Shown here: positions 5,316 through 28,049 of the stretch, one piece after another
How the letters are laid out: the number at the start of each line of letters is the position of its first letter
Numbering within the stretch: position 1 is the stretch's first letter
Assembly: GCA_044344725.1 (NCBI GenBank)
Contig: JBIJCL010000001.1
Span: 1-28,973 of the forward strand
DNA length: 28,973 nt
Origin: Steroidobacteraceae bacterium
Lineage (GTDB): Bacteria; Pseudomonadota; Gammaproteobacteria; Steroidobacterales; Steroidobacteraceae
Direction: 5' to 3'
Position numbers and translations under genes: made by a program
Notes under the pieces: generated by a model
Databases searched by the model: none
What the model saw: only the letters and a program-made list of their open reading frames with translations
Told to the model about the DNA's origin: nothing

Positions 5316-6251
5316 TCAATGGATGTGAGACAGGATGCCGTCGAGCTCGTCGAGCGAGTGATACGCGATCACGAGCCGACCTTTGCCGCCTTTGCCGAGC
5401 GATTCGATTTTGACGTCGGCACCCAGAGTTTCGGAGAGCCGATTTTCGAGCTCGCGAACATTGGCATCCGTGGCGTCACCCGGTGTTGCAGCGCTGAAAT
5501 CGCGATCGAACCCCGTATCCTTTTTCGGCGGATTGTTCAGTCGGCGAACCAATGCTTCGGTTTCTCGTACTGATAGTCCTTTTTTCGATACTAATTGGCC
5601 GACTTCCACCTGCTGACGCTTTTGCGTGAGGCCGAGCAAGGCGCGGGCATGGCCCATCTCGATCTCGCGACGATCGACAAGCTCCGCGACCTCTGCAGGC
5701 AGCTCGAGCAGACGCAGGAGATTGCTGACTGCGGCACGAGATCGACCGACCGCGTCGGCCGCTTGTTGATGGGTCACCTCGAACTCGCGGATCAGGCGAT
5801 CGAGGGCTCGGGCCTCTTCGAGGGGATTCAGATTCTCGCGCTGGATGTTTTCGATCAGCGCCATGGCGATGGCGCTCTCGTCCGGCACCCGACGGATGAC
5901 CGCCGGGATCGTCTCGAGGCCCGCCATCTGGGCGGCTCGCCAGCGACGCTCGCCGGCGATGATTTCGTATCGCGTGGGCGCCGCGCCCGGTGCCGCCCCC
6001 GGCATCTCGAGAGGCCGCACGACGATGGGCTGCACCACGCCTTGGGCCCGGATGGAACTCGCGAGGTCCTCGAGGGCCTCCTCTCGCATGTCGACGCGAG
6101 GTTGGTAACGACCCCGTTGCAGCTGATCGAGCGGCAACTTCGCGAGCTCGTCGCCCGGTAGGGCCGGCGCGCCGGTCGTGGTGCGGCTCGCGCTCATCTG
6201 TCCGAGTAGCGCATCGAGTCCGCGGCCGAGGACGGGCTTTTTCTGATTCAT
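5316..6251 (-). CDS. parB: Chromosome partitioning protein ParB
   Basis: 311 aa; LGRGLDALL N-terminus, YQPR, GVVQPIVVR, the IIAGERRWRAAQ CTPase box, ENIQRENLNPLEEA and an HTH segment (GRSRAAVSNLLRLL). Confidence 0.98.
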   Translation of the reverse strand: MNQKKPVLGRGLDALLGQMSASRTTTGAPALPGDELAKLPLDQLQRGRYQPRVDMREEALEDLASSIRAQGVVQPIVVRPLEMPGAAPGAAPTRYEIIAGERRWRAAQMAGLETIPAVIRRVPDESAIAMALIENIQRENLNPLEEARALDRLIREFEVTHQQAADAVGRSRAAVSNLLRLLELPAEVAELVDRREIEMGHARALLGLTQKRQQVEVGQLVSKKGLSVRETEALVRRLNNPPKKDTGFDRDFSAATPGDATDANVRELENRLSETLGADVKIESLGKGGKGRLVIAYHSLDELDGILSHIH

Positions 6252-7036
6252 GCCCGCGATGATAGCGGAGTCGCCCGCGTGATCGCCGCCGCCTCTCGAG
6301 GCTGGTTTTCACCGATGCCGAGGAAGATCTCCCGGAAGGCGACGTACCCGAGGGCGCCGAAGAAACAATAAAGCACGGGAACGATCGGCGGCAGCAACAA
6401 GGCGAAGACGGCGGGCAACACCATGAACAGCAACGCGACCCCGAGCATGGGGCCGATGTTGCGGATCTGCCCCGCGGCACCGAGTCGCCAGGCTTCGCGG
6501 AACGACAAGCCCAACAAAGTCATGCAGAGAAACTGGAAGAACGACGTCAGTCCGGGGATGTTGAGTCCGAAATAACAGAGACCCAAGGCGAAAGCCGAAT
6601 AGACGAAGATTTGTCGCAGGGCGATGAAGCCGTCGGCCGACAGCACGTCGACCGAGTTGCGTTCGGTGTAGAGGATGTTCCACCACGCGACGCCGGGCTT
6701 CGAGAGCAACAACACCCAGACCAGCGCCCCTGCGAGCGCGACGAGGGCTGCAAACATGAGAATCACCCGAAACTTGGCCCTCAGCATCTCGAGCGCCTCG
6801 GCGAGGGTGATGCGGCCGCTGCGATCGAGGTGAGACGCGATCAGCATGCAGGAGAGCAGCGCGACGAGCGCGAGGATGCCGCTGACGAGCGGAAATCGAT
6901 GCCCGACGAACATCCAGAGACACATCAGCAGGGAGAGTGCGGACCAGAAGCCGAGACCGCGACGCAACAGATCGAAGGCTTGCCGAGACCAGCGCAGCAC
7001 CGCGCCGGGCGCTGCACTGCGCGGCTCGATCAGCAT
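6248..7036 (-). CDS. Hypothetical multi-pass inner-membrane protein (BPSS1780-like by recalled resemblance)
   Basis: 262 aa with about 6 hydrophobic stretches. Starts 3 nt after the parA stop and overlaps the parB start (ATGA). The N-terminal W..QAFDLLRR and C-terminal YVAFREIF segments recall BPSS1780-family proteins; not verified by search. Confidence 0.8.
   Translation of the reverse strand: MLIEPRSAAPGAVLRWSRQAFDLLRRGLGFWSALSLLMCLWMFVGHRFPLVSGILALVALLSCMLIASHLDRSGRITLAEALEMLRAKFRVILMFAALVALAGALVWVLLLSKPGVAWWNILYTERNSVDVLSADGFIALRQIFVYSAFALGLCYFGLNIPGLTSFFQFLCMTLLGLSFREAWRLGAAGQIRNIGPMLGVALLFMVLPAVFALLLPPIVPVLYCFFGALGYVAFREIFLGIGENQPREAAAITRATPLSSRA
6259..6264 (-). promoter_or_regulatory. 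Putative -10 element for leaderless parB transcript
   Basis: TATCAT 7 nt before the parB ATG (6251); no SD; lies inside the 3' end of the upstream membrane gene. Confidence 0.5.
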
Positions 7037-7039
7037 GGT

Positions 7040-7855
7040 TCAGCCGGCTGGGCGCGCTGCGCCCATCACGGCGGGGGGCGCAGCCGGCACGCCGCCACGC
7101 CCGATCATTTCACCGGCGAGCGCGAGGTAGGCGAGGGCTCCGCGCGAATCCTTGTCGTGCAAGAGTGCCGGCTTGCCGAAAGACGGCGCCTCGGCGAGAC
7201 GTACGTTGCGCGGGACGATGGTACTGAAGACCTTGTCACCGAAATGCTCGATCAATTGAGCGCTGACCTCATTCGCAAGGTTGTTACGCGGATCGAACAT
7301 CGTGCGCAGGACGCCTTCGACCTGAAGGTTGGGATTCACGGCTTCGCGGATCTGCTCGATGGTGGAGAGCAGTGCCGTCAACCCCTCGAGCGCGTAGTAC
7401 TCGCACTGCATCGGTACGAGTACGCCATCGGCGGCGACGAGCGCATTGACGGTCAGCATGTTGAGCGAGGGTGGGCAGTCGATGAGGATGACGTCGAACT
7501 CGTCTCGCACCGTCTTCAGTGCATTGCGCAATCGGATCTCGCGACCGACGGGCATCGATAGCAACTGCACCTCGGCAGCGGTGAGATCTTGGTTGGCCGG
7601 CAAGAGCGCCATCGCCGGCGACTCGAGCATGAGGAGCGCATCGCGTGCCGAGCACTCGCCCGTCAGCACATCGCCGACACCTCGCACGATCGAAGTTTTT
7701 TCGACGCCGCAACCCATCGTCGCGTTGCCCTGGGGATCGAGGTCGATGAGCAGCACTCGACGACGCGTGACGGCGAGCGACGCGGCGAGGTTGACTGCAG
7801 TGGTGGTCTTGCCGACGCCGCCTTTCTGGTTGGCGATGGCGATGATGCGGGCCAT
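7040..7855 (-). CDS. parA: Chromosome partitioning ATPase ParA/Soj
   Basis: 271 aa; deviant Walker A NQKGGVGKTT, IDLDPQGN, IDCPPSL, PMQCEYYALEG, VPRNVRLAEAPSFG. Confidence 0.98.
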   Translation of the reverse strand: MARIIAIANQKGGVGKTTTAVNLAASLAVTRRRVLLIDLDPQGNATMGCGVEKTSIVRGVGDVLTGECSARDALLMLESPAMALLPANQDLTAAEVQLLSMPVGREIRLRNALKTVRDEFDVILIDCPPSLNMLTVNALVAADGVLVPMQCEYYALEGLTALLSTIEQIREAVNPNLQVEGVLRTMFDPRNNLANEVSAQLIEHFGDKVFSTIVPRNVRLAEAPSFGKPALLHDKDSRGALAYLALAGEMIGRGGVPAAPPAVMGAARPAG

Positions 7856-7861
7856 GCGCGG

Positions 7862-7867
7862 AGTCTA
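7862..7867 (-). promoter_or_regulatory. Putative -10 element for leaderless parA transcript
   Basis: TAGACT 6 nt before the ATG at 7855, which places +1 on the A of ATG; no SD in the 24-nt gap. Confidence 0.55.
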
Positions 7868-7879
7868 GCGCAAGCGTCG

Positions 7880-8542
7880 TCACGCCATCCGGCGCAGCAC
7901 GACGACGTGTCGCGCCTCGGCGAGACCCGGGATAGTCAGATCGCGATCGGCCTCGATGCGCCACCCGGCGGGCAGTCCCTCGCGCTCTGCGCTTTGACGC
8001 CGGCCCTTCATCGCCAGCACGAGGGTGTGCGGTCCACAAAGGCCGGCCACCTTATCGAGCAACTCCGGCAAGGGTGCAAAAGCACGCGTGACGACCGTGT
8101 CATAGACCGTCGAGGGCGTGTGGGTCTCGGCGCGGGCATGCACGGCCTGCACATTACCGAGCTCGAGCGTCCGCGCCGCATGCGCCACGAAGCGTACTTT
8201 CTTTCCATTGGAGTCGAGCAGCGTGAACTGTCGATGCGGATCGGCGATGGCGAGCGGCAGCCCCGGGAATCCGGCCCCTGTCCCCACGTCGATGACCCGC
8301 GATCCTTCGAGCAAGGGCCAAACGGCCAGACTGTCGAGCAGATGCCGGACGACCATGTCGCGCCGCTCACCGATGGCGGTGAGGTTGTAGGTTTTGTTCC
8401 AGCGCGACAACTCATCGAGCAACATCAGCAACCGACGCGCGGCTCGATCATCGAGCGTGACGCCGAGTGAGGCGGAATCTTTGATGAGCGCCGTGCGCTC
8501 CGCATCGATCGCGGATGCAGGCGAAGGAGAAATCGTCGACAT
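7880..8542 (-). CDS. rsmG: 16S rRNA m7G527 methyltransferase
   Basis: 220 aa; RWNKTYNLTAI, HLLDSL, SAM-binding DVGTGAGFPG, DSNGKKVRF, VTRAF. Confidence 0.96.
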   Translation of the reverse strand: MSTISPSPASAIDAERTALIKDSASLGVTLDDRAARRLLMLLDELSRWNKTYNLTAIGERRDMVVRHLLDSLAVWPLLEGSRVIDVGTGAGFPGLPLAIADPHRQFTLLDSNGKKVRFVAHAARTLELGNVQAVHARAETHTPSTVYDTVVTRAFAPLPELLDKVAGLCGPHTLVLAMKGRRQSAEREGLPAGWRIEADRDLTIPGLAEARHVVVLRRMA

Positions 8543-8560
8543 CGCTTCGTCGCTCTGTGG

Positions 8561-9556
8561 TCAACCGCCGATCTTGACGATCGTTCGCCCGGTCACCGTG
8601 CCCTTTATGTACGCGTCGAATGCACCGGGTAGATCGTCGAAGGCGATGGTGCTCGTGGCGATCTGGTCGAGGTGACGCGGCCTCAAGTCGGTCGCGATGC
8701 GATTCCAGACGACGAGCCGCATGTCGCGCAAAGTCGCCGAAGAATTGATACCGAGGAGATTCACGCCACGGATGATGAACGGGATCACCGTGGTGTGAAG
8801 CTCTGCGCTACCGGCGAGTCCAATGCTCGCGATATTGCCCCAGTTGTCGACCGTACGTGTCAGCCACGTCAGCATCTCTCCGCCCACGTTGTCGATGGCG
8901 CCACCGAAACGCGCCGTCTCGATGGGTCGCTTGCCGTAATCGATATCTTTGCGAAGCCAAACCTGCGATGCGCCCAAGGATTTCAGATAGTCGACGGACT
9001 CGGCCTTGCTGCTCACGGCAATGACCTCGTAGCCGCGCGCGGCGAGCATGTCGATGGCGATGCTGCCGACACCTCCGGTCGCGCCCGTCACGACGATGGG
9101 GCCTTTCGCCGGAGTCTGGCCGTTGTGTTCCATGCGGTGGATGGCGAGCGCCGCCGTGAACCCCGCCGTACCGAGCGACATGGCCTTGAACGCCCCGAAG
9201 CCCGAAGGCATCGGAATCACCCACTCACCGTTGAGTCGGGCGTACTCGGCGTAGCCACCATCGTGCGTTTCGGAAAGACCACAACCCGTCACGAGCACGT
9301 GATCTCCCGCCTTGTACCGAGCGTCGCCCGATGATTCGACGACGCCAGCCAAATCGATGCCGCCGACGAGCGGGTATTTTCTGAGGATTTTTCCGGCACC
9401 CGTCGCTGCAAGCGCGTCTTTGTAGTTGATGTCGGAGTAGAGCACCCGCACGATCACATCGCCCGGTCCGAGATCGTCGATTGTGAGTTGATCGAATCTC
9501 GCGACGATTTTCTTGTCGATTTCGTGGATGCGAAACGCTTTGAAGGTTTTTTCCAT
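8561..9556 (-). CDS. acuI: YhdH/AcuI-family MDR oxidoreductase (probable acrylyl-CoA reductase)
   Basis: 331 aa; INYKDALA, GIDLAGVV, GTAGFTAALAI, NADPH-binding TGATGGVGS, PFIIRGVNLLGINS. Substrate inferred from family membership. Confidence 0.85.
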   Translation of the reverse strand: MEKTFKAFRIHEIDKKIVARFDQLTIDDLGPGDVIVRVLYSDINYKDALAATGAGKILRKYPLVGGIDLAGVVESSGDARYKAGDHVLVTGCGLSETHDGGYAEYARLNGEWVIPMPSGFGAFKAMSLGTAGFTAALAIHRMEHNGQTPAKGPIVVTGATGGVGSIAIDMLAARGYEVIAVSSKAESVDYLKSLGASQVWLRKDIDYGKRPIETARFGGAIDNVGGEMLTWLTRTVDNWGNIASIGLAGSAELHTTVIPFIIRGVNLLGINSSATLRDMRLVVWNRIATDLRPRHLDQIATSTIAFDDLPGAFDAYIKGTVTGRTIVKIGG

Positions 9557-9572
9557 GGGAGTGGTTCTCTAC

Positions 9573-10523
9573 TTACGCGCGATTTCGGCGTGAAAGCCAG
9601 GCCAGCAAACCGTCGGTGTTGAGATCGAGATCCCCGCCCAGCCACAGTTCTATCGTGTCGTCGTTTGCGGCGCTGCCGAATTGGCGAAGTTCACGAACGA
9701 ATATTTCTTTGAGCGTGGCGCGGATGGCGGGACGCGCGGTTTCGACAGTCTCGCTCTCGTGAGACAACGCCGTCGCGACATGTGCCTCGATCATCCGGAT
9801 GAGATCGACACCTATCCGTTCGAGATCATCGATGCGCGCATAGTGGGTGAGAAAGGCGGCCTTGGGGCGACGCGCGAGGATGCGGCGTATCGAGTCGATG
9901 AGCTGCGACGGATCGAACTGGGACGGGCTGGTCGTCGGAACCCCGAAGGCTCGTCCCTCCACGTCGAACACTCGATAAGAGAGGCCCAAGGTGTCTCCCG
10001 TGAAGACCGACTGGCTGCCATGGTCAAAGAAAGTCTGATGATGTAACGCATGGCCGGGCGTGTGGAGAATCTCGAATTCCCGTCCGCCGAGTGCGAAACG
10101 TTGACCCTCGGTGGTGGCGACCACCCGCGAGCTGTCGATGGGCAGGAGCTCGCCGTACAAACGATCGTAAAGCTCTCGGCCGTAGACGGCGATCGAGGCT
10201 TCGATGAGCTTTTTCGGATCGACCATGTGGGGGGCGCCGCGCGGATGTACGACGACTCTGGCGTTCGGCAACGCCCGCATCAGCTGCCCGGCGCCACCGG
10301 CATGGTCGAGATGCACGTGCGTGAGGAGCAGCCAGTCGACATCCTCGCGATTCACGCCGAGTTCGTCGAGCGCGGCGAGCATCGCGGGGACGGAGTGGGC
10401 GGTGCCGCAATCGACGAAGGCAGCCCGACCCGCATCGACGACGAGATGGACGGCATCGAAGAGGGGCATCAAATATTCGGCATCGATGGCATGGATGCCG
10501 TGGTCGTAACGGTGGGTGATCAT
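9573..10523 (-). CDS. Metallo-beta-lactamase-fold hydrolase
   Basis: 316 aa; THVHLDHAGG metal motif, HPRGAPHM, TPGHALHH, FTGDTLG; GGAGGG SD. Confidence 0.92.
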   Translation of the reverse strand: MITHRYDHGIHAIDAEYLMPLFDAVHLVVDAGRAAFVDCGTAHSVPAMLAALDELGVNREDVDWLLLTHVHLDHAGGAGQLMRALPNARVVVHPRGAPHMVDPKKLIEASIAVYGRELYDRLYGELLPIDSSRVVATTEGQRFALGGREFEILHTPGHALHHQTFFDHGSQSVFTGDTLGLSYRVFDVEGRAFGVPTTSPSQFDPSQLIDSIRRILARRPKAAFLTHYARIDDLERIGVDLIRMIEAHVATALSHESETVETARPAIRATLKEIFVRELRQFGSAANDDTIELWLGGDLDLNTDGLLAWLSRRNRA

Positions 10524-10567
10524 CGTCCGCCCTCCGCGGCGGCATTGGAGTCGTGAAAAAGCTCGGG

Positions 10568-10574
10568 CAACATA
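10568..10574. promoter_or_regulatory. Putative overlapped bidirectional -10 (MBL hydrolase / S9 peptidase)
   Basis: Plus strand CAACAT 10568-10573, 7 nt before ATG 10581; minus strand TATGTT 10574-10569. Confidence 0.35.
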
Positions 10575-10580
10575 TCAGAC

Positions 10581-12569
10581 ATGACCAAACCTTACACCGA
10601 ACGCCGCGCCGTTCCCCTCACCCTCATTACCACCGTGCTCGTGCTGTTCGCCGGAGCGGCGAGCGCGCAGTCTCCCGCTCGCGAAACCCGCGGGAACCTC
10701 GTACTCGAGGGCATTCCACCGCATTCGACACGGGCACTCGAGACGCTGGACGGATGGCTCGCCGGACGCGGTGCCAACTTCCAGGACTTCATGGCGGACG
10801 GAAGCATTCTGATCACCACGCGCTTCGGCGACGCCGATCAGGTCCATCATGTCGCTCATCCGGGCGCCGCCCGTACGCAGTTGACCTTCGACATCGACCC
10901 TGCGGGCGGAGCGAGCGCAAATCCTGCCTCTGGATCGCGGATGTTCCTGTTCGCGCGTGATCGAGGCGGAAACGAGAACGCCCAGCTCTATTTGCAAGAT
11001 CTCGATACCCGCCAAACGAAGCGGGTGACCGACGGTCGCTCCCGGCACGGCGGCGCGCTGTGGTCGCGTGATGGCAAACGCCTCGCGTTTCAAAGTAACG
11101 CGCGCAACGGCATCAACCAGGACGTCTACATCGCGGACATCGATGGCAGCAGCGGAGCACGCCTCGTCGTCGCGTCGCAGGGCCAGACGTGGACACCGCT
11201 CGATTGGTCGGCCGATGGTCAAAGATTGTTGCTGCTCGATTATTCCTCGGTCACCGATGCATCGCTGTACGTTGCAGAAATCGCAACGGGCGCATTCACC
11301 CGCGTGTCGCTCTCGGGCGACCCCGCAAAGCCCTCGCCGCAAAGCGGAATCGGCAGCGCCCGCTTCTCTGCAGACGGACAAGGCGTGTGGCTTACGGCCG
11401 ACCTCGGCGGCGAGTTCCGTCAAATCCGTTACGTCGATCTTGCGAGCGGCAGCCTGCGAACGCTTACGGCGAGCCTGTCCTGGGATGTCGACGACTTCGA
11501 AATCAGCACGGACGGTCGATGGCTCGCCTACGTCGCGAACGTCGACGGCTTCAGCGAACTCTTCATCGCCGATCTCGGCGCCGGACTGACGCTGCGACCG
11601 TCGGGTCTGCCGGCCGGCCTCATCTCGAACCTGCGTTTCGACCGGCAGGGAAAAACGCTGGGAATGAGTATCGAATCCTCGCAGTCTCCACGAGACGCCT
11701 GGACCTACGACATCGAAAAAGCCGAGGCCACTCGCTGGACGCGGAGCGAGACGGGGCTCATCGATCCCTCCAAACTCGTCGCAGCATCGGTGTTTCGCTA
11801 TCCGACCTGGGATCGTGTTGGCCGCGCTCAGCGGCAAATTCCCGCGTTGATCCATAAGCCGGCGAAGTCCGGTCGGCATCCGGTGGTGATCGACATCCAC
11901 GGCGGACCCGAGGGGCAGTCACGCCCCGGCTACAGCCCGTTCGCCCAGTACCTCGTCAATGAATTGGGCTACGCAGTCATTCAACCGAACGTTCGCGGAT
12001 CGACCGGTTACGGCCGCACTTTCACGATGCTCGACAACGGTCGGCTCCGTGAAGATTCGGTGAGAGACATCGGCGCGCTACTCGTGTGGATCGCCGCACA
12101 ACCTGATCTCGACGCGGATCGCGTCGTCGTGATGGGCGGTTCTTACGGTGGGTACATGGTGCTCGCCTCGCTCATCGCGTACGGCGACCGACTCAAGGGC
12201 GGTATCAACGTCGTCGGCATCAGCAACTTCGTCACTTTCCTCACCAACACCTCAGGCTATCGCCGTGATCTGCGTCGAGTGGAATACGGTGACGAGCGCG
12301 ATCCTTCGATGCGCGCGTTCCTGCGTCGCATCTCTCCGCTCGAAAAAGCATCGATGATTCGACGACCGCTGCTCGTGGTGCAGGGGCTCAACGATCCGCG
12401 TGTCCCCGCGTCCGAGAGCGAGCAGCTCGTGGCGAAGATTCGCGAGCAGGGTGGCGAGGTGTGGTACCTCGCGGCCAAAGACGAAGGGCACGGCTTCCGG
12501 AAAAAAGCCAACCGCGACTTTTACCTCAAGACCGCCGTGACCTTCCTGGAGCGGCTCTCCGCTCCGTGA
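10581..12569 (+). CDS. Exported S9-family (prolyl oligopeptidase-like) serine peptidase with beta-propeller
   Basis: 662 aa; signal peptide ending AASA, WS.DG propeller repeats, DIHGGPEGQ, PNVRGSTGYG, nucleophile GGSYGG, QGLNDPRV (Asp), DEGHGF (His). Confidence 0.95.
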   Translation: MTKPYTERRAVPLTLITTVLVLFAGAASAQSPARETRGNLVLEGIPPHSTRALETLDGWLAGRGANFQDFMADGSILITTRFGDADQVHHVAHPGAARTQLTFDIDPAGGASANPASGSRMFLFARDRGGNENAQLYLQDLDTRQTKRVTDGRSRHGGALWSRDGKRLAFQSNARNGINQDVYIADIDGSSGARLVVASQGQTWTPLDWSADGQRLLLLDYSSVTDASLYVAEIATGAFTRVSLSGDPAKPSPQSGIGSARFSADGQGVWLTADLGGEFRQIRYVDLASGSLRTLTASLSWDVDDFEISTDGRWLAYVANVDGFSELFIADLGAGLTLRPSGLPAGLISNLRFDRQGKTLGMSIESSQSPRDAWTYDIEKAEATRWTRSETGLIDPSKLVAASVFRYPTWDRVGRAQRQIPALIHKPAKSGRHPVVIDIHGGPEGQSRPGYSPFAQYLVNELGYAVIQPNVRGSTGYGRTFTMLDNGRLREDSVRDIGALLVWIAAQPDLDADRVVVMGGSYGGYMVLASLIAYGDRLKGGINVVGISNFVTFLTNTSGYRRDLRRVEYGDERDPSMRAFLRRISPLEKASMIRRPLLVVQGLNDPRVPASESEQLVAKIREQGGEVWYLAAKDEGHGFRKKANRDFYLKTAVTFLERLSAP

Positions 12570-12582
12570 AAGCGGTAGGCGC

Positions 12583-13230
12583 TCAGCGCTTGGCGGGGAT
12601 TGGGCGCTTGGAGGTTTCGAGACCCGGGCGCTGCGCCGAGTAGTACGCCGCCAAGGCACGGATGTCCGCAGCGGAGAGCGCACCGGCGAAGCCCGCCATG
12701 ATCGCGTTCTTGCGTCCGCCTTTCTTGTAATCGGTCAGGGCTCGCTCGAGGTAGTCGGCGTGCTGACCGGCGAGCGTCGGGTATTGCGGCGTGATGCCGA
12801 TACCGTCTACTCCGTGGCAGGCGACACAAGTCTGAGCCACTTCGGGGGCTTTACCCACCGGCTTCGACCCGGCAGCGGGCGCCACCACCGGGCCGGCGAG
12901 GAAGGCAGCCATATCGGCGAGGTCCTGATCCTTCCAGCCTGAGGCGTTGGCGTGCATGGTGGCGTGGCTGCGCTCACCACTTTGATAAGCCTGCAGGGCC
13001 AGAACGAGGTATTCGGGATGCTGGCCACGCAACTTCGGTACCCGGTACTGGGGGTTGGGATTGCGGTAGTTCGGAATGCCGTGGCAACCGAGGCAGGTGT
13101 ACGCGAGTTTCGCGCCCCGCTCGGCATTGCCCGCCGATTGCGCGTACGCAGAAGGAATAGAACACGCCACGACCCAGAAAAGCGCCACGAGAAACTTCGA
13201 CACCGTAACCCCCGAAACCCTTCGATTCAT
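12583..13230 (-). CDS. Di-heme cytochrome c4
   Basis: 215 aa; signal peptide, two CxxCH motifs (CLGCH, CVACH), P.L.GQH..YL repeats and distal Met ligands. Confidence 0.93.
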
Positions 13231-13247
13231 GCGGAAAACAGGCCGCG

Positions 13248-13257
13248 ATGTTAAGGT
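13248..13257. promoter_or_regulatory. Putative overlapped bidirectional -10 (cytochrome c4 / dtd)
   Basis: ATGTTAAGGT: plus strand extended -10 TGtTAAGGT (hexamer 13252-13257); minus strand TAACAT (13253-13248). Confidence 0.45.
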
Positions 13258-13289
13258 TTCGCCGCCCGAATTGCCACCACGTGGGTCGC

Positions 13290-13739
13290 ATGATCGCTCT
13301 CATCCAACGCGTCACCGAGGCTAGCGTCACCGTCGACGGCGAGCGCCTCGGCGAAATTGGGCCGGGATTACTGGCGTTGGTCGGTGTCCGGCCGAACGAC
13401 GATGACGAGACCGCCCAGCGGTTGCTCGAGCGCCTACTCGCTTACCGCGTATTCGGAGACGAGCAGGGAAGAATGAATCTTTCGCTCACCGACACCGGCG
13501 GCGGCTTGCTCCTCGTGCCGCAGTTCACGCTCGCCGCCGACACCCGAAAAGGCAACCGGCCCGGATTCAGCACGGCCGCGCCCCCCGCCCAGGCGGAACG
13601 CCTGTTCGACCATTTGTGTGCGCTCGCACGCCAAGCCCATCCGAAGGTCGCGACCGGTCGATTCGGTGCCGATATGAAAGTGGCCCTCATCAATGACGGT
13701 CCCGTCACGTTCTGGCTGCAAACCCCGGAAACCGTCTAA
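13290..13739 (+). CDS. dtd: D-aminoacyl-tRNA deacylase (start 13290, not 13248)
   Basis: [15 protein letters not shown]..., [17 protein letters not shown] and the NDGPVT Gly-cisPro motif; 149 aa. Confidence 0.96.
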
Positions 13740-20689: not shown

Positions 20690-20710
20690 GTGCTCTTCTC
20701 CTTATGCAGC

Positions 20711-20731
20711 ATTCTGCCACCGCGCTATGCT
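20711..20731. promoter_or_regulatory. Putative divergent -10 elements (holin-like gene / MAPEG)
   Basis: Minus strand extended TGgCAGAAT (hexamer 20716-20711); plus strand TATGCT 20726-20731. Both genes have SD-like sequences. Confidence 0.35.
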
Positions 20732-20758
20732 TGACCCTCGTTCATCAAGGGGGTTCCC

Positions 20759-21151
20759 ATGTCTGCCGACTACGTACCGGTCTTCCTGGTCATGCTGATC
20801 GCTCTCGTCGAGTACTTCGGCTTCGCCGCCGCCGTCGGTCGCGCCCGACATCGCTTCGGCATCAAGGCGCCCGCCACGAGTGGCAACCCCGACTTCGAGC
20901 GCTACTACCGGGTGCAGATGAATACCCTCGAGGTGCTCATCATTTTCATTCCGGCCCTGTGGTCTTTCGCGATCTTGGTCGATCCGATGTGGGCGACCGG
21001 CCTCGGTGCGCTTTTCATCGTCGGTCGATTGGTCTTCTTCATGGGCTACGTCAAGGCCGCCGACAAGCGCGGTCTCGGTTTTGCCTTGTCGTCCGTCCCC
21101 ATGCTCGCGCTCTTGATCGGTGGCATCGTCGGCGCGATTCGCGCCCTCTGA
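20759..21151 (+). CDS. MAPEG-family membrane protein
   Basis: 130 aa; GRARHRFGIKAPATSGNPDFERYYRVQMNTLE, GRLVFFMGY. Confidence 0.92.
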   Translation: MSADYVPVFLVMLIALVEYFGFAAAVGRARHRFGIKAPATSGNPDFERYYRVQMNTLEVLIIFIPALWSFAILVDPMWATGLGALFIVGRLVFFMGYVKAADKRGLGFALSSVPMLALLIGGIVGAIRAL

Positions 21152-21162
21152 TCCCTCTGATG

Positions 21163-21178
21163 GGGCGGAAAACCGCCC
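21163..21178. terminator. GC hairpin between convergent MAPEG and dedA; weak terminator or 3' stabiliser
   Basis: GGGCGG-AAAA-CCGCCC 6-bp stem followed by only TT, so there is no true U-tract on either strand. Confidence 0.35.
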
Positions 21179-21179
21179 T

Positions 21180-21824
21180 TCAGCCGCGCCGCCGCCGCAG
21201 GGCGATGATGGCGACGGGAATCAAGGAGCCAAAGATGATCGTCAGCGTGACGAGGCCAAAGTTGTCTCGCACGATCGGGATGTTGCCGAACAGATAGCCG
21301 CCGCCCAGGAAGACCGTCACCCAAGATACCGCGCCGACCACGTTGTACATCTGGAATCTCGAGTACTGCATGCGCGCGATCCCGGCGACGAATGGCGCAA
21401 AGGTTCTCAGCAGCGGCAGGAAACGCGACAGCACCACGGTCTTCCCGCCATGCTTCACGAAGTACGCCTCGGTCTGACGGAGATACTCGACTTTGAGTAG
21501 TCGATATCGACCACTGAACGCAGGAGGACCGATCGCTTTTCCGATGGCGTAGTTGCAGCTGTTACCGAGGATCGCCGCAACGATCAATAGTGCCGCGACA
21601 GTCGGGGCGTGCAACGTGCCGCTGGTATCGATCGCCGCGAGTGTGCCGACAGCGAAGAGCAGCGAGTCACCGGGTAGCCACGGCGTCACGACGAGACCCG
21701 TCTCCGCGAATACGATGACGAACAAGATCGCGTAGATCCACAGCCCGTACTGCTGCAGCAACTCGACGAGGTGACTGTCGAGGTTGAGGATGAAATCGAT
21801 GAAAAACTGCAACAGTTCGATCAT
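21180..21824 (-). CDS. dedA: DedA-family membrane protein
   Basis: 214 aa; FAETGLVVTPWLPGDSLLF, SRFLPLLRTFAPFVAG. ATGA overlap with the ctpA stop. Confidence 0.94.
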   Translation of the reverse strand: MIELLQFFIDFILNLDSHLVELLQQYGLWIYAILFVIVFAETGLVVTPWLPGDSLLFAVGTLAAIDTSGTLHAPTVAALLIVAAILGNSCNYAIGKAIGPPAFSGRYRLLKVEYLRQTEAYFVKHGGKTVVLSRFLPLLRTFAPFVAGIARMQYSRFQMYNVVGAVSWVTVFLGGGYLFGNIPIVRDNFGLVTLTIIFGSLIPVAIIALRRRRG

Positions 21825-23107
21825 GAGATTCGGGGAGGCTTGGCCTCGGCTGTGCGAGTGCCGCGCGGGGCACGACGTTGAAGCTCACGAAGCGCTGCGC
21901 GCACCTCGTCGTCCACGACCGGATCGGTAGGCGCCGAGTCAGGACCGGACAATGTCACATCGGGTTCGATCCCTCGTTCGTTTATATAGGTGCCGGAAGG
22001 CGTCGCGTAACGAGAAGTAGTCAGCTTGATGGCGTGCCCGTTGCTGAGCGGGATGACGCTTTGGACCGAACCCTTCCCGTAGGTCTTACGTCCGACGAGC
22101 AGGGCGCGTTGATTATCTTTGAGCGCACCGGCGAGGATCTCCGCTGCCGAGGCAGACGCGCCATTGACGAGCACGGCGATGTCGAGTCCCGTCAGTAACT
22201 GGCCGGGCTCGGCATCCATTCGGAATCGAGCATCGGCCGCGCGGCCACGCGCCATGACGATGTTCCCCTGATCGAGCATCGCATCGGCGACTGCAACCGC
22301 GCTCTCGAGAACGCCGCCGGGATTGTTGCGAAGATCGATGACGACTCCTCTCAGTTCCGGCTGTTCGCCCCGCAGGCGCTGTATCGCTTCGGCGAAGTCG
22401 GCCGGTGTCGTGTCGCTGAAAGAAGCAATGCGAAGATAGCCGTACCGCGAATCGAGGCGAGAGCTCGACACGCTGTGCACTTCGACGCGTGCCCGCTCCA
22501 ACACGACGTCGACGAGCTCATCGCGCGCGGCGCGACGTACGGTCAAACGAACCATTGAACCGGCGGGCCCACGCATCTGCTCGATGGCTTCGGCGACATT
22601 GAGGCCTACGGGTTCGCCGTCTATACGCAAGATGAGGTCGCCGGCTCGTATTCCAGCACGCGCAGCGGGCGACTCTTCGAGGGGCCGCTGAACTTTGATG
22701 AAACCGTTTTCGGCGGAGACCTCGATACCGATCCCCGGGTAGTGGCCGGCCGCGCCCCGACGAATCTCTTCGAACTCTCGCTGATCGAGATACGCCGAAT
22801 GTGCATCGAGCCCCGAGAGCATGCCGCGTACGGCGCTGTCGACGAGCTTGTCATCCGGAACTTCGTCGACGTATTCGCGGCGCACCTGAGAAAGAACCTC
22901 AGCGAGTCGGCGCGCTTCATCGGTGGAGAGCTGCTTCGACAACATCGATGCGGCGCCATTCGTAGCGGCGCTTGGTGGAGGCGCAGTGATCGGGGTCGAT
23001 GCCGCCGGAACGCCTTCGTCCGCAACATACGCCCAGCGCCCCAACGCGACGCCGGCCAAAAGACCGACGACGACGCCCGAGACGATCAAAACGCGGGGGG
23101 AGTTCAT
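21821..23107 (-). CDS. ctpA: S41A carboxyl-terminal processing protease (PDZ-containing); start 23107 preferred
   Basis: N-terminal TM, LDAHSAYL, PDZ (GIGIEV...GDLILRIDG), DLRNNPGGVL, catalytic ASASAAEILAGAL, GRKTYGKGSVQ. Confidence 0.93.
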   Translation of the reverse strand: MNSPRVLIVSGVVVGLLAGVALGRWAYVADEGVPAASTPITAPPPSAATNGAASMLSKQLSTDEARRLAEVLSQVRREYVDEVPDDKLVDSAVRGMLSGLDAHSAYLDQREFEEIRRGAAGHYPGIGIEVSAENGFIKVQRPLEESPAARAGIRAGDLILRIDGEPVGLNVAEAIEQMRGPAGSMVRLTVRRAARDELVDVVLERARVEVHSVSSSRLDSRYGYLRIASFSDTTPADFAEAIQRLRGEQPELRGVVIDLRNNPGGVLESAVAVADAMLDQGNIVMARGRAADARFRMDAEPGQLLTGLDIAVLVNGASASAAEILAGALKDNQRALLVGRKTYGKGSVQSVIPLSNGHAIKLTTSRYATPSGTYINERGIEPDVTLSGPDSAPTDPVVDDEVRAALRELQRRAPRGTRTAEAKPPRIS

Positions 23108-23115
23108 TGACGAAG

Positions 23116-23121
23116 ATTTTA
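23116..23121 (-). promoter_or_regulatory. Putative -10 element for (near-)leaderless ctpA-dedA transcript
   Basis: TAAAAT 8 nt before ATG 23107; no SD. Confidence 0.5.
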
Positions 23122-23133
23122 CAGGCTTGTCGC

Positions 23134-24282
23134 TCAGGGCTGCCTGTCTTTGAACCACGGCGCCGGGTCGAGTGGGCGAGCACCCTGTCGGATCTCAAAA
23201 TAAAGTCCGGGCTGAGCCCGTCCGCCAGAATCGCCGACACCGGCAACGGTATCGCCGGCGGCCACCTGGTCACCCACGGCGCGGAACAGTTGTTCGTTGT
23301 GACCGTAGAGGCTGAGGAACCCGCCGCCATGGTCGATGATCATGAGGAGACCGAGACCAGCGAGCCAGTCGGCATAGACCACACGACCACGATAGATGGC
23401 TCGCACGGGCGTGCCCCGCGCCGCCGCGATCACCACGCCATCCCATTTGACGGTGCCGGCTCTGGACTGGCCAAACCGCGCTTCGAGACGTCCCGTCGTC
23501 GGCCATGTCAGTTTGCCGCGCATGCCCGCGAACGGACTACGGCTGTCTGAGGGAAACTGCGGCGCGACGCGACGCAAGTCACGAAGCAGCTTTTCGAGAG
23601 CCGCCTGCTCTCGCTGCAGGCGCTGCAAGCTTGCGTTCCGCGCACGCGCTTCGGCGGTCAAACTTGCCAGGACCTGGCCACGCTCGGCTCGAGCTTTGTC
23701 CAGCCTCGAGACTTCGTCTTTTTGTTCCTGCTCGAGACGAAGAATGCGCTCGCGCTCGGTTTCGAGACTGGCGTCGAGAGCGGCGATCTCACGGAGATTC
23801 TCCTCGATCACGGCCAGCTGTCCCGCCCTTGCCCGACCGAAATAACCGTAGTACGAGAACATGCGTTCCGCTCGACTCGGGTCTTCCTGGTTGAGGAACA
23901 TCTTGAGCGGCTCGTCGCGCCCGATGAGGTACGCGGCCCGAATCTGCGCAGCGAGATCCGCGCGTTCGCGAGAGAGATCCTGCTCACGCTGTCGTTTTTG
24001 TTCGGCCAGATCGGCGCGACGCTGTTCTCGAGTCCGACGCTCTCCGCGTAACCGGTCGAGTTCTCCTCGGGCACGATTCGCGGCGGTCTCTGCGGCACGC
24101 AGCGCCCGGGTGAGGCGATCCCGCTCCGCGGAATCCTTGGCGACCTGACCCCGGATCCGCTCGATTTCGGCGCGAAGTTGTCGCAGCTCGGCCTCGGCGC
24201 GGGCGGCATCCTGCGCCACGGCCGACGACAGCAGTACTGCCGAGACCAAAACGGGAATCCAACGAGTTATCCGACCGCGCAT
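23134..24282 (-). CDS. envC: Murein hydrolase activator EnvC (coiled coil + degenerate M23/LytM); start 24282
   Basis: Signal peptide MRGRITRWIPVLVSAVLLSSAVA, long coiled coil, KLTWPTTG, WDGVVI, IIDHGGGFLSLYGHN, LYFEIRQG; 382 aa. Confidence 0.92.
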   Translation of the reverse strand: MRGRITRWIPVLVSAVLLSSAVAQDAARAEAELRQLRAEIERIRGQVAKDSAERDRLTRALRAAETAANRARGELDRLRGERRTREQRRADLAEQKRQREQDLSRERADLAAQIRAAYLIGRDEPLKMFLNQEDPSRAERMFSYYGYFGRARAGQLAVIEENLREIAALDASLETERERILRLEQEQKDEVSRLDKARAERGQVLASLTAEARARNASLQRLQREQAALEKLLRDLRRVAPQFPSDSRSPFAGMRGKLTWPTTGRLEARFGQSRAGTVKWDGVVIAAARGTPVRAIYRGRVVYADWLAGLGLLMIIDHGGGFLSLYGHNEQLFRAVGDQVAAGDTVAGVGDSGGRAQPGLYFEIRQGARPLDPAPWFKDRQP

Positions 24283-24290
24283 CGGACCAA

Positions 24291-24300
24291 ATTGTATAAT
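24291..24300. promoter_or_regulatory. Putative overlapped bidirectional -10 (envC / rhodanese operon)
   Basis: ATTGTATAAT: plus strand TATAAT 24295-24300, 7 nt before ATG 24308; minus strand TACAAT 24296-24291, 8 nt before ATG 24282. Confidence 0.65.
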
Positions 24301-24307
24301 CCCGGCA

Positions 24308-24742
24308 ATGGAAAAGTTGCCCGAATACGTCGCAAACCACCCGTGGCTCGTCTCTCTGGCGGTCGTTGCCGCGGTGCTCGTGATCGTGTTCGAAATCCGC
24401 GCGCGTCGCGATGCCTTCGCCGGCATCTCGCCGCAGGACTTGATCCGCCTTCAGAACCAGGGCGCCCTGATCATCGATCTGCGTAATCCCGAGGCCTTCG
24501 GCGCAGGACACATCAGTGGCGCACGCCGTATGGATTCCGCCGAGATGCTCACGGCAGGCGACTCGCTCAAGAAGTTCAAAGAGAAGAACGTCGTCGTCTA
24601 TTGCGAGTCCGGTTCGACCGGGGCGGCCGCGGCACGCGTGCTCCTCCGGCAAGGCTTCAAGCAGGTATTCAACCTCAAGGGTGGCGTCGACGGATGGCGT
24701 AGCGAGAACCTCCCGCTCGCCACCGGCAAGGGAAAGGGCTGA
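24308..24742 (+). CDS. Membrane-anchored rhodanese-domain protein (YibN-like)
   Basis: 144 aa; NH..L N-terminal TM, IIDLR...FGAGHISGA, YCESG active loop, FNLKGGVDGW; canonical position before grxC-secB. Confidence 0.93.
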   Translation: MEKLPEYVANHPWLVSLAVVAAVLVIVFEIRARRDAFAGISPQDLIRLQNQGALIIDLRNPEAFGAGHISGARRMDSAEMLTAGDSLKKFKEKNVVVYCESGSTGAAAARVLLRQGFKQVFNLKGGVDGWRSENLPLATGKGKG

Positions 24743-24746
24743 TCCG

Positions 24747-25004
24747 ATGTCGGCGAAGGTCGTGATGTACGCCACCGCATGGTGTCCCTACTGCGCTCGT
24801 GCTCGAGAATTGCTCGAGAACAAGCACGCGGACCTCGAGATCATCGACGTCGATCGTGACCCCGTGCTGCGACAGCAGATGATGGCGCGCAGTGGCCGTC
24901 ATACGGTTCCGCAGATTTTCGTCGGCGATGTACATGTCGGCGGATGCGACGACTTGTATGCACTCGATGCAAAAGGCGGTCTCGATCCGATACTCGCTGG
25001 CTGA
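24747..25004 (+). CDS. grxC: Glutaredoxin 3
   Basis: 85 aa from ATG 24747; WCPYC, TVPQIF, GGCDDL. Confidence 0.96.
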   Translation: MSAKVVMYATAWCPYCARARELLENKHADLEIIDVDRDPVLRQQMMARSGRHTVPQIFVGDVHVGGCDDLYALDAKGGLDPILAG

Positions 25005-25052
25005 CCGCAATCGTTTTATCTTTGAAAGCAATCATCACAGAGGCTTCACCAC

Positions 25053-25565
25053 ATGGCTGATCCAGATCCGCGCGCCGATGGCGCCACCCCTCCGGGCGCC
25101 GAAGCGAATGCTCCGGAATTTTCGCTGCAGTCGGTTTACCTGAAGGACTGCTCCTTCGAGGCACCGAAAGGTCCGCGTATCGAAGGCGCCTGGAACCCGC
25201 AGATCGGCCTCGATCTCAATACGTCCTCCGAAGCCATTTCGCCGGAGCTTCGCGAAGTCGTGCTGACGGTCAGCATCACCGCCAAGCTCGGCGAGGTGAC
25301 CGCCTTCCTCGTCGAAGTGAAACAAGCCGGACTTTTCGGCGTGCGTAATCTCGACGAAGACGAGCACCGCCGCGCGGTCGCCGCCATCGCGCCTTCCGTA
25401 CTGTTTCCGTATGCGCGAGCGATCATCGCGAATCTCGTGTCGCAGGGTGGATTCCCGCAACTGCTGCTGCCGCCCGTGAACTTCGACGCACTCTACGCTC
25501 GATCTCTCGCCGAGGCCGCCGCCAAGCAGCAAGCGCAGACGCCGCCTGCGAACCTCAACAGCTGA
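25053..25565 (+). CDS. secB: Protein-export chaperone SecB
   Basis: 170 aa; QSVYLKDCSFEAP, FLVEVKQAGLF, LFPYARAII, GGFPQLLLPPVNFDALY. Confidence 0.97.
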   Translation: MADPDPRADGATPPGAEANAPEFSLQSVYLKDCSFEAPKGPRIEGAWNPQIGLDLNTSSEAISPELREVVLTVSITAKLGEVTAFLVEVKQAGLFGVRNLDEDEHRRAVAAIAPSVLFPYARAIIANLVSQGGFPQLLLPPVNFDALYARSLAEAAAKQQAQTPPANLNS

Positions 25566-25570
25566 CGACG

Positions 25571-26584
25571 ATGAGCGACGCGGCCGCACCGTTGGCCGTA
25601 CTCGGCGCCGGATCCTGGGGAACGGCGCTCGCCATCCAGTTCGCTCGAGCGGGTCATCCGACGCGGCTATGGGGCCGCGACCCGGTTCAACAAGCCGCAA
25701 TGGCCAAGGCGCGTTGCAACCCGCGATATCTCCCCGAGGCGTCGTTCCCGGAGAATCTTTCGGTCGTACGTAATCTGGAAGAAGGGCTGGATGGCGTCAG
25801 CGAAATTCTGATCGCCGTGCCGAGCCATGCCTTGCGCGAACTACTCAAAGAAATCGCCCCCCTGCTAGGGAGCGACACTCGGCTTGCTTGGGCGACGAAA
25901 GGCTTCGAGCTCGATACCGGACTGCTGCCGCATCAGGTCGCACGGGAAGTGCTTGGAGATTCCAGATCGTTCGCGGTGCTCTCCGGGCCGACTTTCGCTC
26001 GTGAGGTCGGTGCGGGTCTGCCGACGGCCATGACCATCGCCTCCCCCGACGAAGGCTTCGCGAACGCGCTTGCCCGGAGCCTTTCTGCATCCAACTTCCG
26101 CGCGTACACCTCGACCGACATTGTCGGGGTCGAGGTCGGTGGGGCCACCAAAAACGTTCTCGCGGTGGGAGCGGGCCTCGCCGATGGTCTTGGCTTTGGT
26201 GCAAATACCCGTGTCGCCCTGATCACCCGCGGGCTCGTCGAAATGACTCGACTCGGCGTCGCACTCGGTGCGAAACGTGAAACCTTCATGGGTCTCGCTG
26301 GGCTCGGCGACCTCGTACTAACCTGTACCGACGATCAGTCACGCAATCGACGATTCGGCTTGTTGCTCGCGAGCGGCAAGAGCGCCGAAGAAGCTCTCAA
26401 AGAAATCGGGCAGGTCGTCGAAGGCTATCTGGCGGCCCGTGCCGTGCATCGGGTAGCAGCCCGGGAGAAAGTCGATATGCCGATCTGCGAAGGCATCTAC
26501 AGACTGCTCTACGAAGGTGTGCCGGCGCGCGAAGTCGTCAAAGCCTTGATGACCCGGCCGATCAAGGCCGAATTCACCGAGTAG
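25571..26584 (+). CDS. gpsA: NAD(P)H-dependent glycerol-3-phosphate dehydrogenase
   Basis: 337 aa; GAGSWGTALA, ATKGFE, LSGPTFAREV, GGATKN, GLGDLVLTCTDDQSRNRRFG. Confidence 0.97.
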   Translation: MSDAAAPLAVLGAGSWGTALAIQFARAGHPTRLWGRDPVQQAAMAKARCNPRYLPEASFPENLSVVRNLEEGLDGVSEILIAVPSHALRELLKEIAPLLGSDTRLAWATKGFELDTGLLPHQVAREVLGDSRSFAVLSGPTFAREVGAGLPTAMTIASPDEGFANALARSLSASNFRAYTSTDIVGVEVGGATKNVLAVGAGLADGLGFGANTRVALITRGLVEMTRLGVALGAKRETFMGLAGLGDLVLTCTDDQSRNRRFGLLLASGKSAEEALKEIGQVVEGYLAARAVHRVAAREKVDMPICEGIYRLLYEGVPAREVVKALMTRPIKAEFTE

Positions 26585-27062
26585 CGTCAGGGCTGCCGAA
26601 ACCATTCTGGCGCCAGGCCTCATAGGTCACGAGCGTCACGGCGTTCGAGAGGTTGAGGCTGCGATTACCCTCTCGCATCGGAATGCTGACGATCGCGGCA
26701 TCGCCCGACTCCCGACGCAACGAGTCGATGATGTCTTGCGGCAAGCCCCGACGCTCCGATCCGAACAGCAGCGCATCGCCCGGCTGCCAGTCCACTTCAT
26801 CGTAACGACGAGCCCCGCCCGTCTCGACGGCAAACCAACGTACGGCGGGTCCGAGCGCGTGTCGGCAGGCCTGAAAATCCTCGTGTACATGCACGGCCGT
26901 CATCCACCGGTAATCGAGACCGGCTCTGCGTACCGAGGGGCGATCGAGATCGAACCCCAAAGGTTTGACGAGATGCAGCTCGGCACCCGTATTGGCACAC
27001 AGCCGGATCACGTTGCCGGTGTTCGGCGGGATCTCCGGTTCGAATAACACGATGCGGAACAT
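26574..27062 (-). CDS. trmL: tRNA (cytidine/uridine-34-2'-O)-methyltransferase (SPOUT); start 27062
   Basis: MFRIVLFEPEIPPNTGNVIRLCANTG, RRAGLDY, LFGSE, RSLNLSNAV; 162 aa. Confidence 0.96.
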   Translation of the reverse strand: MFRIVLFEPEIPPNTGNVIRLCANTGAELHLVKPLGFDLDRPSVRRAGLDYRWMTAVHVHEDFQACRHALGPAVRWFAVETGGARRYDEVDWQPGDALLFGSERRGLPQDIIDSLRRESGDAAIVSIPMREGNRSLNLSNAVTLVTYEAWRQNGFGSPDATR

Positions 27063-27069
27063 GCTGCGC

Positions 27070-27098
27070 ATGGTAGCAATGCCGGTGCCGTCTATAAT
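27070..27098. promoter_or_regulatory. Putative back-to-back leaderless promoters (trmL / pyrD)
   Basis: Minus strand extended TGcTACCAT (hexamer 27075-27070), 7 nt before ATG 27062; plus strand TATAAT 27093-27098, 6 nt before ATG 27105. The hexamers are exactly 17 nt apart. Confidence 0.65.
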
Positions 27099-27104
27099 CA
27101 CCGC

Positions 27105-28049
27105 ATGTCCCATGCCGTCCCCGAATCCCTTCGCTATCGCTTCCTCGGCATGGATTTCTCCTCGCCCATCGTGCTGCTGTCGGGGTGCGTGGGTTTCGGA
27201 GAGGAATACACACGGGTCGAGGGGTTCTCGAATACCGACTGCGGGGCAGTAGTGCTCAAGGGAACGACGCTCGAGCCGAGGCTCGGCAATCCGCCGCATC
27301 GGGTCTACGAAACCCCGATGGGCATGCTGAACGCGATCGGGCTGCAGAACCCAGGCACGGACCACGTCGTCCGCAATATCCTGCCGACACTCGACTTCAG
27401 CGAGACTCGATTCATCGCGAACGTATCGGGATCGACCATCGAGGAATACGCCGAAGTCACTCGGCGTTTCGACGACTCGCCTATCGACGCCATCGAGATC
27501 AACATCTCGTGCCCGAACGTCAAGGAAGGCGGTGTCGCTTTTGGCAACTATCCGGAGATGTCGGCGCGTGTCGTCGCCGCCTGCCGTGCCGTCACGAAGA
27601 AGCCCATCATCACCAAGCTGTCTCCGAACCAGACGGATATCAAAGAAAACGCCAGACTCTGCATCGAAGCCGGTAGTGACGGACTCTCCGTCATCAACAC
27701 CATCATGGGCATGGCCATCGACGCCAAAACGCGTCGGCCGGTGATCGGCAACGTGCAGGGCGGGCTCTCGGGCCCCGCGATCAAGCCCATCGCTCTACTC
27801 AAGGTCCATCAGGTTTACGATGTCGCCCGCCGTCATGGTGTACCGATCATCGGGCAAGGCGGAATCACGACCGCGACCGATGCGATCGAGTTCATCATCG
27901 CGGGTGCGAGTGCCGTCGGTCTCGGTACTTCGCTGTTCTACGACCCCATGACCTGCAAGAAGATCAATGCGGGCATCGCGAAATATCTCGCGGACAACGG
28001 CATGAGCCACATCACCGACCTCATCGGTTCGCTACGGCTCACTGCCTGA
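27105..28049 (+). CDS. pyrD: Dihydroorotate dehydrogenase, family 1 (1B-type catalytic subunit)
   Basis: 314 aa; LSGCVGFG, KGTTLEPRLGN, GMLNAIGLQNPG, catalytic Cys in INISCPN, KLSPN, INT, GGLSGPAIKP; no N-terminal membrane domain. Confidence 0.93.
   Translation: MSHAVPESLRYRFLGMDFSSPIVLLSGCVGFGEEYTRVEGFSNTDCGAVVLKGTTLEPRLGNPPHRVYETPMGMLNAIGLQNPGTDHVVRNILPTLDFSETRFIANVSGSTIEEYAEVTRRFDDSPIDAIEINISCPNVKEGGVAFGNYPEMSARVVAACRAVTKKPIITKLSPNQTDIKENARLCIEAGSDGLSVINTIMGMAIDAKTRRPVIGNVQGGLSGPAIKPIALLKVHQVYDVARRHGVPIIGQGGITTATDAIEFIIAGASAVGLGTSLFYDPMTCKKINAGIAKYLADNGMSHITDLIGSLRLTA

Follow-up and report, generated by a model that had tools for sequence, protein, structure and literature searches.

Leaderless genes of bacteria have been predicted from a TANNNT signal preceding the start codon (Zheng et al., 2011; PMC3160421). 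Within the Gammaproteobacteria, such genes were found mostly in the Xanthomonadales and Legionellales, where they account for 3.0–5.7% of genes (PMC3160421). In Xanthomonas campestris pv. vesicatoria, differential RNA sequencing (dRNA-seq) identified 14% of the mRNAs with a mapped primary transcription start site as leaderless (Schmidtke et al., 2012; PMC3300014). These mRNAs are associated with a poorly conserved -10 element, lack a consensus Shine-Dalgarno (SD) sequence, begin with AUG in 82% of cases, and include many housekeeping functions (PMC3300014). GeneMarkS-2 assigned 5.6% of Proteobacteria to a leaderless "group C" (PMC6028130), the genomes of which typically have 25–50% of their operons leaderless, and leaderless transcriptomes are likewise known from Actinobacteria and Deinococcus (PMC6028130, PMC3898074, PMC4007540). 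The present study concerns a stretch of 28,973 nucleotides, hereafter the window, from a metagenome-assembled genome (MAG) of the Steroidobacteraceae, and in particular seven of its genes, parB, parA, ctpA, envC, a rhodanese gene, trmL, and pyrD, each of which is preceded by a TANNNT hexamer. Leaderless expression from promoters consisting of a -10 box only is the best explanation for these sequences and, in our judgment, a highly probable one.

The seven genes resemble the "TA-led" genes of Zheng et al. in having a TANNNT-like signal ~10 nt before the start codon and no SD, and the source lineage resembles the gammaproteobacterial lineages of that study in being high in GC and branching near the base of the class (PMC3160421). 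The share of such genes, ~6% in this MAG by a strict count, is close to the 3.0–5.7% predicted in the gammaproteobacterial genomes of that study (PMC3160421). Unlike those lineages, the Steroidobacteraceae were not included in the earlier data set (PMC3160421), and orthologue-level conservation and an apparent switch from leadered to leaderless expression at one gene are added here. The similarity to Xanthomonas is also close: 8.5–16% of divergent first genes are candidates, 78% of the candidate starts are ATG, and an SD core is found at ~25% of starts, although the Xanthomonas result is experimental, obtained by dRNA-seq, while the present one combines prediction with comparative genomics (PMC3300014). 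Compared with group C genomes the habit appears less pervasive, at 8.5–16% of divergent first genes, a figure obtained with a strict TANNNT pattern and a crude gene finder. An earlier note on this DNA, made from the sequence alone, had framed such starts as unusual for Gammaproteobacteria, a framing that overlooks the Xanthomonadales and Legionellales, in which they have already been predicted and measured (PMC3160421, PMC3300014). A literature search found no report of leaderless mRNAs, in this sense, in Steroidobacter. The mechanism is already well known; it is the lineage that is newly added to it, and no new mechanism is involved.

Hexamers, spacers, and start codons were all re-read directly from the sequence (Table 1). 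A TANNNT hexamer ends 6–8 nt before the start codon in 7/7 of the flagged genes, and an SD core is absent before every one of these starts, just as the earlier note had described; the weaker CAACAT located 7 nt before the S9 peptidase ATG is present as well. The genes with which that note had contrasted the seven are also as it reported. Thus, atpA, atpE, atpF, the holin-like gene, and the POT gene all have GGAG-type SDs, and the full atp promoter, TTGCTG-N17-TATAAT, can be read at 5284–5312. A promoter scan gave no call at the atp promoter, the TTGCTG of which matches three of the six positions of TTGACA. The chance estimate made at the time was approximately right, with ~0.66 hits expected (33 genes × 3 offsets, at the MAG background of 0.0066 per offset per gene) and seven seen. 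The proportion in the window, seven of ~33 genes, is above the genome average, and this contig is rich in housekeeping genes.

A broader view of these hexamers came from the whole MAG, in which genes were called with a codon-usage model and the occurrence of TANNNT was recorded offset by offset upstream of the first start codon. The profile contained a sharp peak at spacings of 6–7 nt. In a first set of 1118 genes, spacings of 6, 7, and 8 nt were represented by 38, 18, and 10 hexamers over a background of 7.4 per offset (66 versus 22 expected, p=5e-14). A refined set of 1385 genes, which takes in the short genes of tight divergent pairs that had been left out of the first set, rhodanese among them, yielded 43, 24, and 15 hexamers over a background of 9.1 per offset (82 versus 27 expected, p=3e-17). 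The genome-wide positional enrichment that the earlier note had proposed as a check of its prediction is therefore found. Shadow open reading frames (ORFs), which are non-coding, gave no peak when treated identically, with 2.9 hexamers per 1000 at spacing 6 versus 34 per 1000 in genes, and so the peak is not produced by the bounding stop codon. TAT and TAC hexamers, which cannot be stop codons, shared in the enrichment and made up 17 of the 38 hexamers at spacing 6. When any start within 60 codons was allowed, 10% of genes qualified versus 2.2% of shadow ORFs. Leaderless-type starts probably make up ~6–10% of all genes in the MAG, the flagged seven included.

Several features of these hexamers are those of promoters. 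Among 113 flagged hexamers, A was enriched at positions 4 and 5, neither of which was used in the selection (44/113 and 49/113 versus 19% genomic A), and the consensus is TAnAAT-like. Genome-wide, -35 sequences showed no excess over random positions upstream of the flagged hexamers and a TGn extension of the -10 was not enriched, so that the lack of a TTGACA-like -35, which had been remarked upon for the seven genes, is borne out across the MAG. In the geometry of sigma-70 promoters, a hexamer at -12 to -7 places +1 on the A of the ATG when the spacing is 6 nt, and a peak at this spacing is expected for that reason. The hexamer rate before divergent genes was 8.5% when the first start codon was considered and 16% when any nearby start was allowed. 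Before same-strand genes it was 14% at gaps of 41–100 nt and 1.3% at gaps of ≤10 nt; SD cores, by contrast, remained at 24–45% in the same-strand-gap classes, with no drop at gaps of ≤10 nt. The leaderless-type signal is thereby concentrated at the first genes of transcription units and rare at tightly coupled internal genes. An SD core (GGAG, GAGG, or AGGA at -17 to -5) was found at 1/65 flagged starts, where 16 would be expected if the two signals were independent, versus 25% of all first starts, although some of this exclusion is unavoidable, as the hexamer takes up the region in which an SD would lie. Start-codon usage at flagged starts (ATG/GTG/TTG 78/15/6%) is like that of SD-validated starts (75/17/9%) and unlike that of the unvalidated remainder (52/26/22%). 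Furthermore, for 13/40 candidates a Pfam alignment opens at profile positions 1–6 and no more than 15 residues from the predicted start.

In the proposed mechanism, the hexamers would serve as sigma-70-type promoters composed of a -10 box only (TANNNT, no -35), transcription would start on, or 1–2 nt before, the A of the ATG, and the resulting mRNA, which would have neither a 5' leader nor an SD, would be translated by ribosomes that start directly on its 5'-terminal AUG. The habit would be genome-wide, extending to between 8.5% (first start codon) and 16% (any nearby start) of the genes that head divergent units. Support for the leaderless prediction comes from genome-wide enrichment and from relatives; we infer from sequence where transcription starts and how the mRNAs are translated, on the basis of the position, statistics, context, and conservation of the hexamers. 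A different and rather improbable explanation is that the A/T-rich hexamers are non-SD translation-initiation elements, such as S1-binding or structure-free sites, located on mRNAs that have leaders or are polycistronic. The organism must have some form of non-SD initiation, since ~75% of first starts have no SD core, and ctpA, parA, and parB begin 26, 24, and -4 nt, respectively, after same-strand genes. However, invariant positions 1, 2, and 6 around variable positions 3–5 are the pattern of a sigma-70 -10 box, the peak at spacing 6 is the prediction of a +1 on the A of the ATG, and the hexamer is common before divergent genes and scarce before tightly coupled operon genes (1.3%), all of which favors promoters over initiation elements.

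The rhodanese locus bears on the same question. Its -10 is found at 6–7 nt in 24/24 loci with ≥62% protein identity, and in 49 more distant loci TATAAT is found 26–59 nt upstream of the ATG, which is too distant for it to act at the start codon. Because the same TATAAT is kept at two different distances from the ATG, the conserved element is, on this comparison, a promoter and not a ribosome-binding substitute. A CCYTTTT leader motif is present in 36/49 of the distant loci; the window's clade, having no leader left, lacks it. These comparisons suggest that the rhodanese leader was lost in the window's clade, the polarity of the change being our reading of the alignments. The leader of the rhodanese gene in distant Steroidobacteraceae opens with TATAAT-GCGC(G/T)CCCTTTTT (loci L025–L080).

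Leaderless expression would also suit the arrangement of the rhodanese gene with envC. The two genes are divergent, with 25 nt between their ATGs (24282, 24308), which leaves no room for leaders, and their -10 boxes overlap in the 10-bp core ATTGTATAAT. Owing to this overlap, the promoters are probably mutually exclusive, such that both cannot be occupied simultaneously. The gap is 25 nt in 20/20 loci with ATTGTATAAT, a core that was required by the search, and most flanking columns contain 2–4 different bases. In the scheme proposed here, the rhodanese TATAAT, which in distant relatives often comes with a conserved GCGCGCCCTTTTT leader motif, would in the closest loci have fused with the envC -10 into a bidirectional core shared by two leaderless mRNAs, the starts of which are 25 nt apart. 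More tentatively, this freshwater Steroidobacteraceae clade may gain leaderless genes by deleting 5' leaders. If general, this would make the family a natural series for how leadered genes turn leaderless, and also for how ParA and ParB acquired separate leaderless promoters. The trmL and pyrD genes are likewise divergent, across a 42-nt gap, with a hexamer-to-hexamer spacing of 17 nt that is 12 nt in one sub-clade, so that a "-35 slot" geometry of this pair is not conserved, and both envC/rhodanese and trmL/pyrD would constitute back-to-back leaderless pairs. Divergent pairs in which both genes are leaderless candidates are not over-represented genome-wide (5 versus 4.3 expected). Three more divergent pairs have leaderless-type -10 boxes on both sides, namely those in contigs C260 (4699–4749), C129 (3652–3691), and C154 (505–526), with gaps of 49, 38, and 20 nt.

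Conservation was assessed in 80 related loci around gpsA and, for parA and parB, across 30 other family genomes. In related genomes, all seven hexamers retain their distance from the start codon, whereas the letters of the spacer vary. Upstream of parA, TANNNT occurs at 6–10 nt in 24/32 family loci, and upstream of parB at 6–9 nt in 21/26; both hexamers are kept regardless of what adjoins them upstream. The ctpA hexamer is TAAAAT, TAGAAT, or TACAAT at 8–9 nt in nine of the closest loci, a further locus has TAAACT at 10 nt, and the ctpA start codon is GTG in some related loci. For envC, TACAAT is found at 8 nt in 19/19 closest loci and TACAAT or TAGAAT at 6–9 nt in many distant ones, and for pyrD, TATAAT is found at 6–7 nt in the close clade and TACAAT at 7–10 nt in many distant loci; taken together, envC and pyrD have TAGAAT or TACAAT at 6–10 nt in many distant genera. 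The trmL hexamer is TACCAT at 6–7 nt in most close loci and TATGAT or TATCAT in some distant ones. The family orthologues of the S9 peptidase have ≤48% identity and N-termini that do not align.

The same pipeline was applied to 400-kb samples of other family genomes. In a genome of the same genus (G018), 6/251 genes had the hexamer at spacing 6 alone, versus a background of ~1, and in a genome of the nearest genus as judged by ParA (G022), 13 hexamers were found at spacings of 6–8 nt versus 5.2 expected. Two distant genomes, G043 (8 versus 4.3) and G009 (6 versus 4.8), gave no significant peak at these spacings and double as negative controls for the pipeline. Since there is a peak in G018 and G022 and none of significance in G043 and G009, the leaderless-type habit is graded within the Steroidobacteraceae. 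The scan of relatives that had been suggested alongside the original prediction thus recovered the same peak in the genomes of the same genus and of the nearest genus, in addition to the hexamers kept in related loci.

The seven proposed start codons are well supported by comparison of their products. The TrmL N-terminus MFRIVLFEPEIPPNTGN (MFRIVLFEP) is kept in 50/50 loci, and the N-termini of ParA (M.R.IA.AN), ParB (M.QKKP.LG), and the rhodanese (ME.L.EY) are conserved from the proposed Met on. The N-termini of EnvC and CtpA are signal or anchor peptides, and Pfam domains begin at residues 2–9 in ParA and PyrD, with the AAA_31 match of ParA extending from residue 3. This evidence makes it very unlikely that the promoters are real and the true start codons lie further downstream, on mRNAs with ordinary leaders, a reading given some room by the fact that the starts are predicted from sequence. 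Least likely of all are chance matches to a pattern as loose as TANNNT, inflated by the reader's free choice among start codons (4/7 starts, those of ctpA, envC, trmL, and, as a coupled gene, parB, are not the first start codon or are otherwise ambiguous), since this reading is largely refuted by the genome-wide peak (p=3e-17), the flat shadow-ORF control, and the conservation of the seven hexamers at the same spacing together with the protein N-termini.

Certain observations weigh against leaderless expression. The genome-wide gene starts were produced by a crude home-made gene finder, and, as described above, the samples of G009 and G043 lack a significant peak. The parA and ctpA genes, which begin 24 and 26 nt, respectively, past the end of a same-strand gene, may be expressed mainly from polycistronic mRNA. 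The parB hexamer lies in coding sequence, and ATGA coupling alone could explain parB expression. At parB, the hexamer is as the earlier note stated, but that note overlooked an intervening ORF of 262 aa, encoding a membrane protein, between parA and parB. This ORF has a GC content at third codon positions (GC3) of 0.83, begins 3 nt beyond the stop codon of parA, and ends with a stop that overlaps the parB ATG (ATGA), and it is because of this overlap of its 3' end that the parB hexamer is inside a coding sequence. The 262-aa ORF was found in 3/61 family genomes searched (the source genome, G018, and G017). In the leaderless model, parA, parB, and ctpA would have leaderless-type promoters of their own inside operon-like arrays, and read-through transcripts from upstream probably coexist with these proposed internal promoters.

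The genes that carry the signal do not form an obvious functional group. Pfam was run on 40 further leaderless candidates and revealed metabolic genes (phosphoenolpyruvate carboxylase, FadE-like acyl-CoA dehydrogenase, acyl-CoA synthetase, PurE, PdxH, and a LipA-like radical SAM protein), regulators (a histidine kinase with its LuxR-type response regulator, and a TetR regulator), transporters, tRNA genes (TsaC/Sua5, QueG, and the CCA/poly(A) polymerase family), and cell-wall genes (MltG/YceG and CsiV). Ribosomal, ATP-synthase, and translation-factor genes were not among the 40. The coherent class of partitioning, cell-wall, tRNA-modification, and pyrimidine genes envisaged from the window is consequently not established in this functionally mixed sample, and the candidates fit moderately expressed housekeeping and accessory genes, a picture also reported for Xanthomonas, rather than a defined regulon. 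The median codon-usage score was higher for SD-led genes than for leaderless candidates (0.245 versus 0.208, p=2e-6), and the candidates did not differ in codon bias from the SD-less remainder (p=0.09). The separation of leaderless from SD-led genes that had been proposed therefore holds in that the two signals are nearly exclusive, in part by construction, and that SD-led genes have the stronger codon bias; it does not extend to a distinction between the candidates and other SD-less genes.

With these results, the Steroidobacteraceae, an abundant and uncultured family of freshwater and soil, join the basal Gammaproteobacteria for which a leaderless habit is already known. There is also a practical consequence, in that start codons of this family will be wrongly placed by gene finders built to expect an SD; 4/7 of the starts in the window are not the longest-ORF start. 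In addition, the chromosome-partitioning genes parA and parB are each predicted to have a conserved leaderless-type promoter.

The window is the longest contig of its MAG, which comprises 1.98 Mb in 326 contigs, is 80% complete, and has a GC content of 62%. The source organism is an uncultured freshwater gammaproteobacterium. Nearly all gpsA relatives are labeled Steroidobacteraceae, Acidibacter, or unclassified Gammaproteobacteria/Pseudomonadota MAGs; many are derived from lakes, and the nearest are 95–96% identical. The estimated genome size is ~2.5 Mb (1.98 Mb at 80% completeness, 62% GC), compared with 3.3 Mb for G018, which has 67.6% GC in the 400 kb sampled, and 3.8 Mb for G055; because of its smaller estimated genome and lower GC, the window's lineage looks reduced relative to these two. 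Gene names in the window were assigned by Pfam, the matches of which agree with the names given in the earlier note, and Rfam and tRNA scans of the window gave no match.

Table 1. Gene map of the window, with the hexamers and start codons read upstream of the flagged genes (positions in the window; spacer, nucleotides between hexamer and start codon).
Feature	Strand	Gene position	Hexamer	Spacer (nt)	Start codon	Basis	Remark
atpGAHFEBI	-					Pfam	
parB	-	5316-6251	TATCAT 6259-6264	7	ATG 6251-6249	sequence; Pfam	
Membrane-protein ORF, 262 aa	-	6248-7036				no Pfam match	multi-pass
parA	-	7040-7855	TAGACT 7862-7867	6	ATG 7855-7853	sequence; Pfam	rsmG adjoins; hexamer in 24-nt gap after rsmG
Zn-dehydrogenase; metallo-beta-lactamase-fold gene		listed before S9 peptidase				Pfam	
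S9 peptidase	+	starts 10581	CAACAT 10568-10573 (weaker)	7	ATG 10581-10583	gene, Pfam; hexamer, sequence only	
cytochrome c, dtd, tatAB/C, POT, OPT, EamA		listed after S9 peptidase				Pfam	
holin-like gene, DedA		listed before ctpA				Pfam	
ctpA	-	ATG 23107	TAAAAT 23116-23121	8	ATG 23107-23105	sequence; Pfam	hexamer in 26-nt gap after envC
envC	-	ATG 24282	TACAAT 24291-24296	8	ATG 24282-24280	sequence; Pfam	-10 overlaps that of rhodanese
rhodanese gene	+	starts 24308	TATAAT 24295-24300	7	ATG 24308-24310	sequence; Pfam	followed by secB, gpsA
trmL	-	ATG 27062	TACCAT 27070-27075	7	ATG 27062-27060	sequence; Pfam	
pyrD	+	starts 27105	TATAAT 27093-27098	6	ATG 27105-27107	sequence; Pfam	followed by mscS

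One further gene of the window, dtd, was considered as a leaderless case and rejected: its longest ORF runs from 13248, but the Pfam alignment and the N-terminus MIALIQRV put the start at the ATG at 13290. Elsewhere in the window, the ATG of dedA and the stop of ctpA overlap (ATGA) at 21821–21824, and gpsA starts a few nucleotides past the secB stop (25565–25571) without an SD. Many genes inside operons here appear to depend on coupling and not on an SD.

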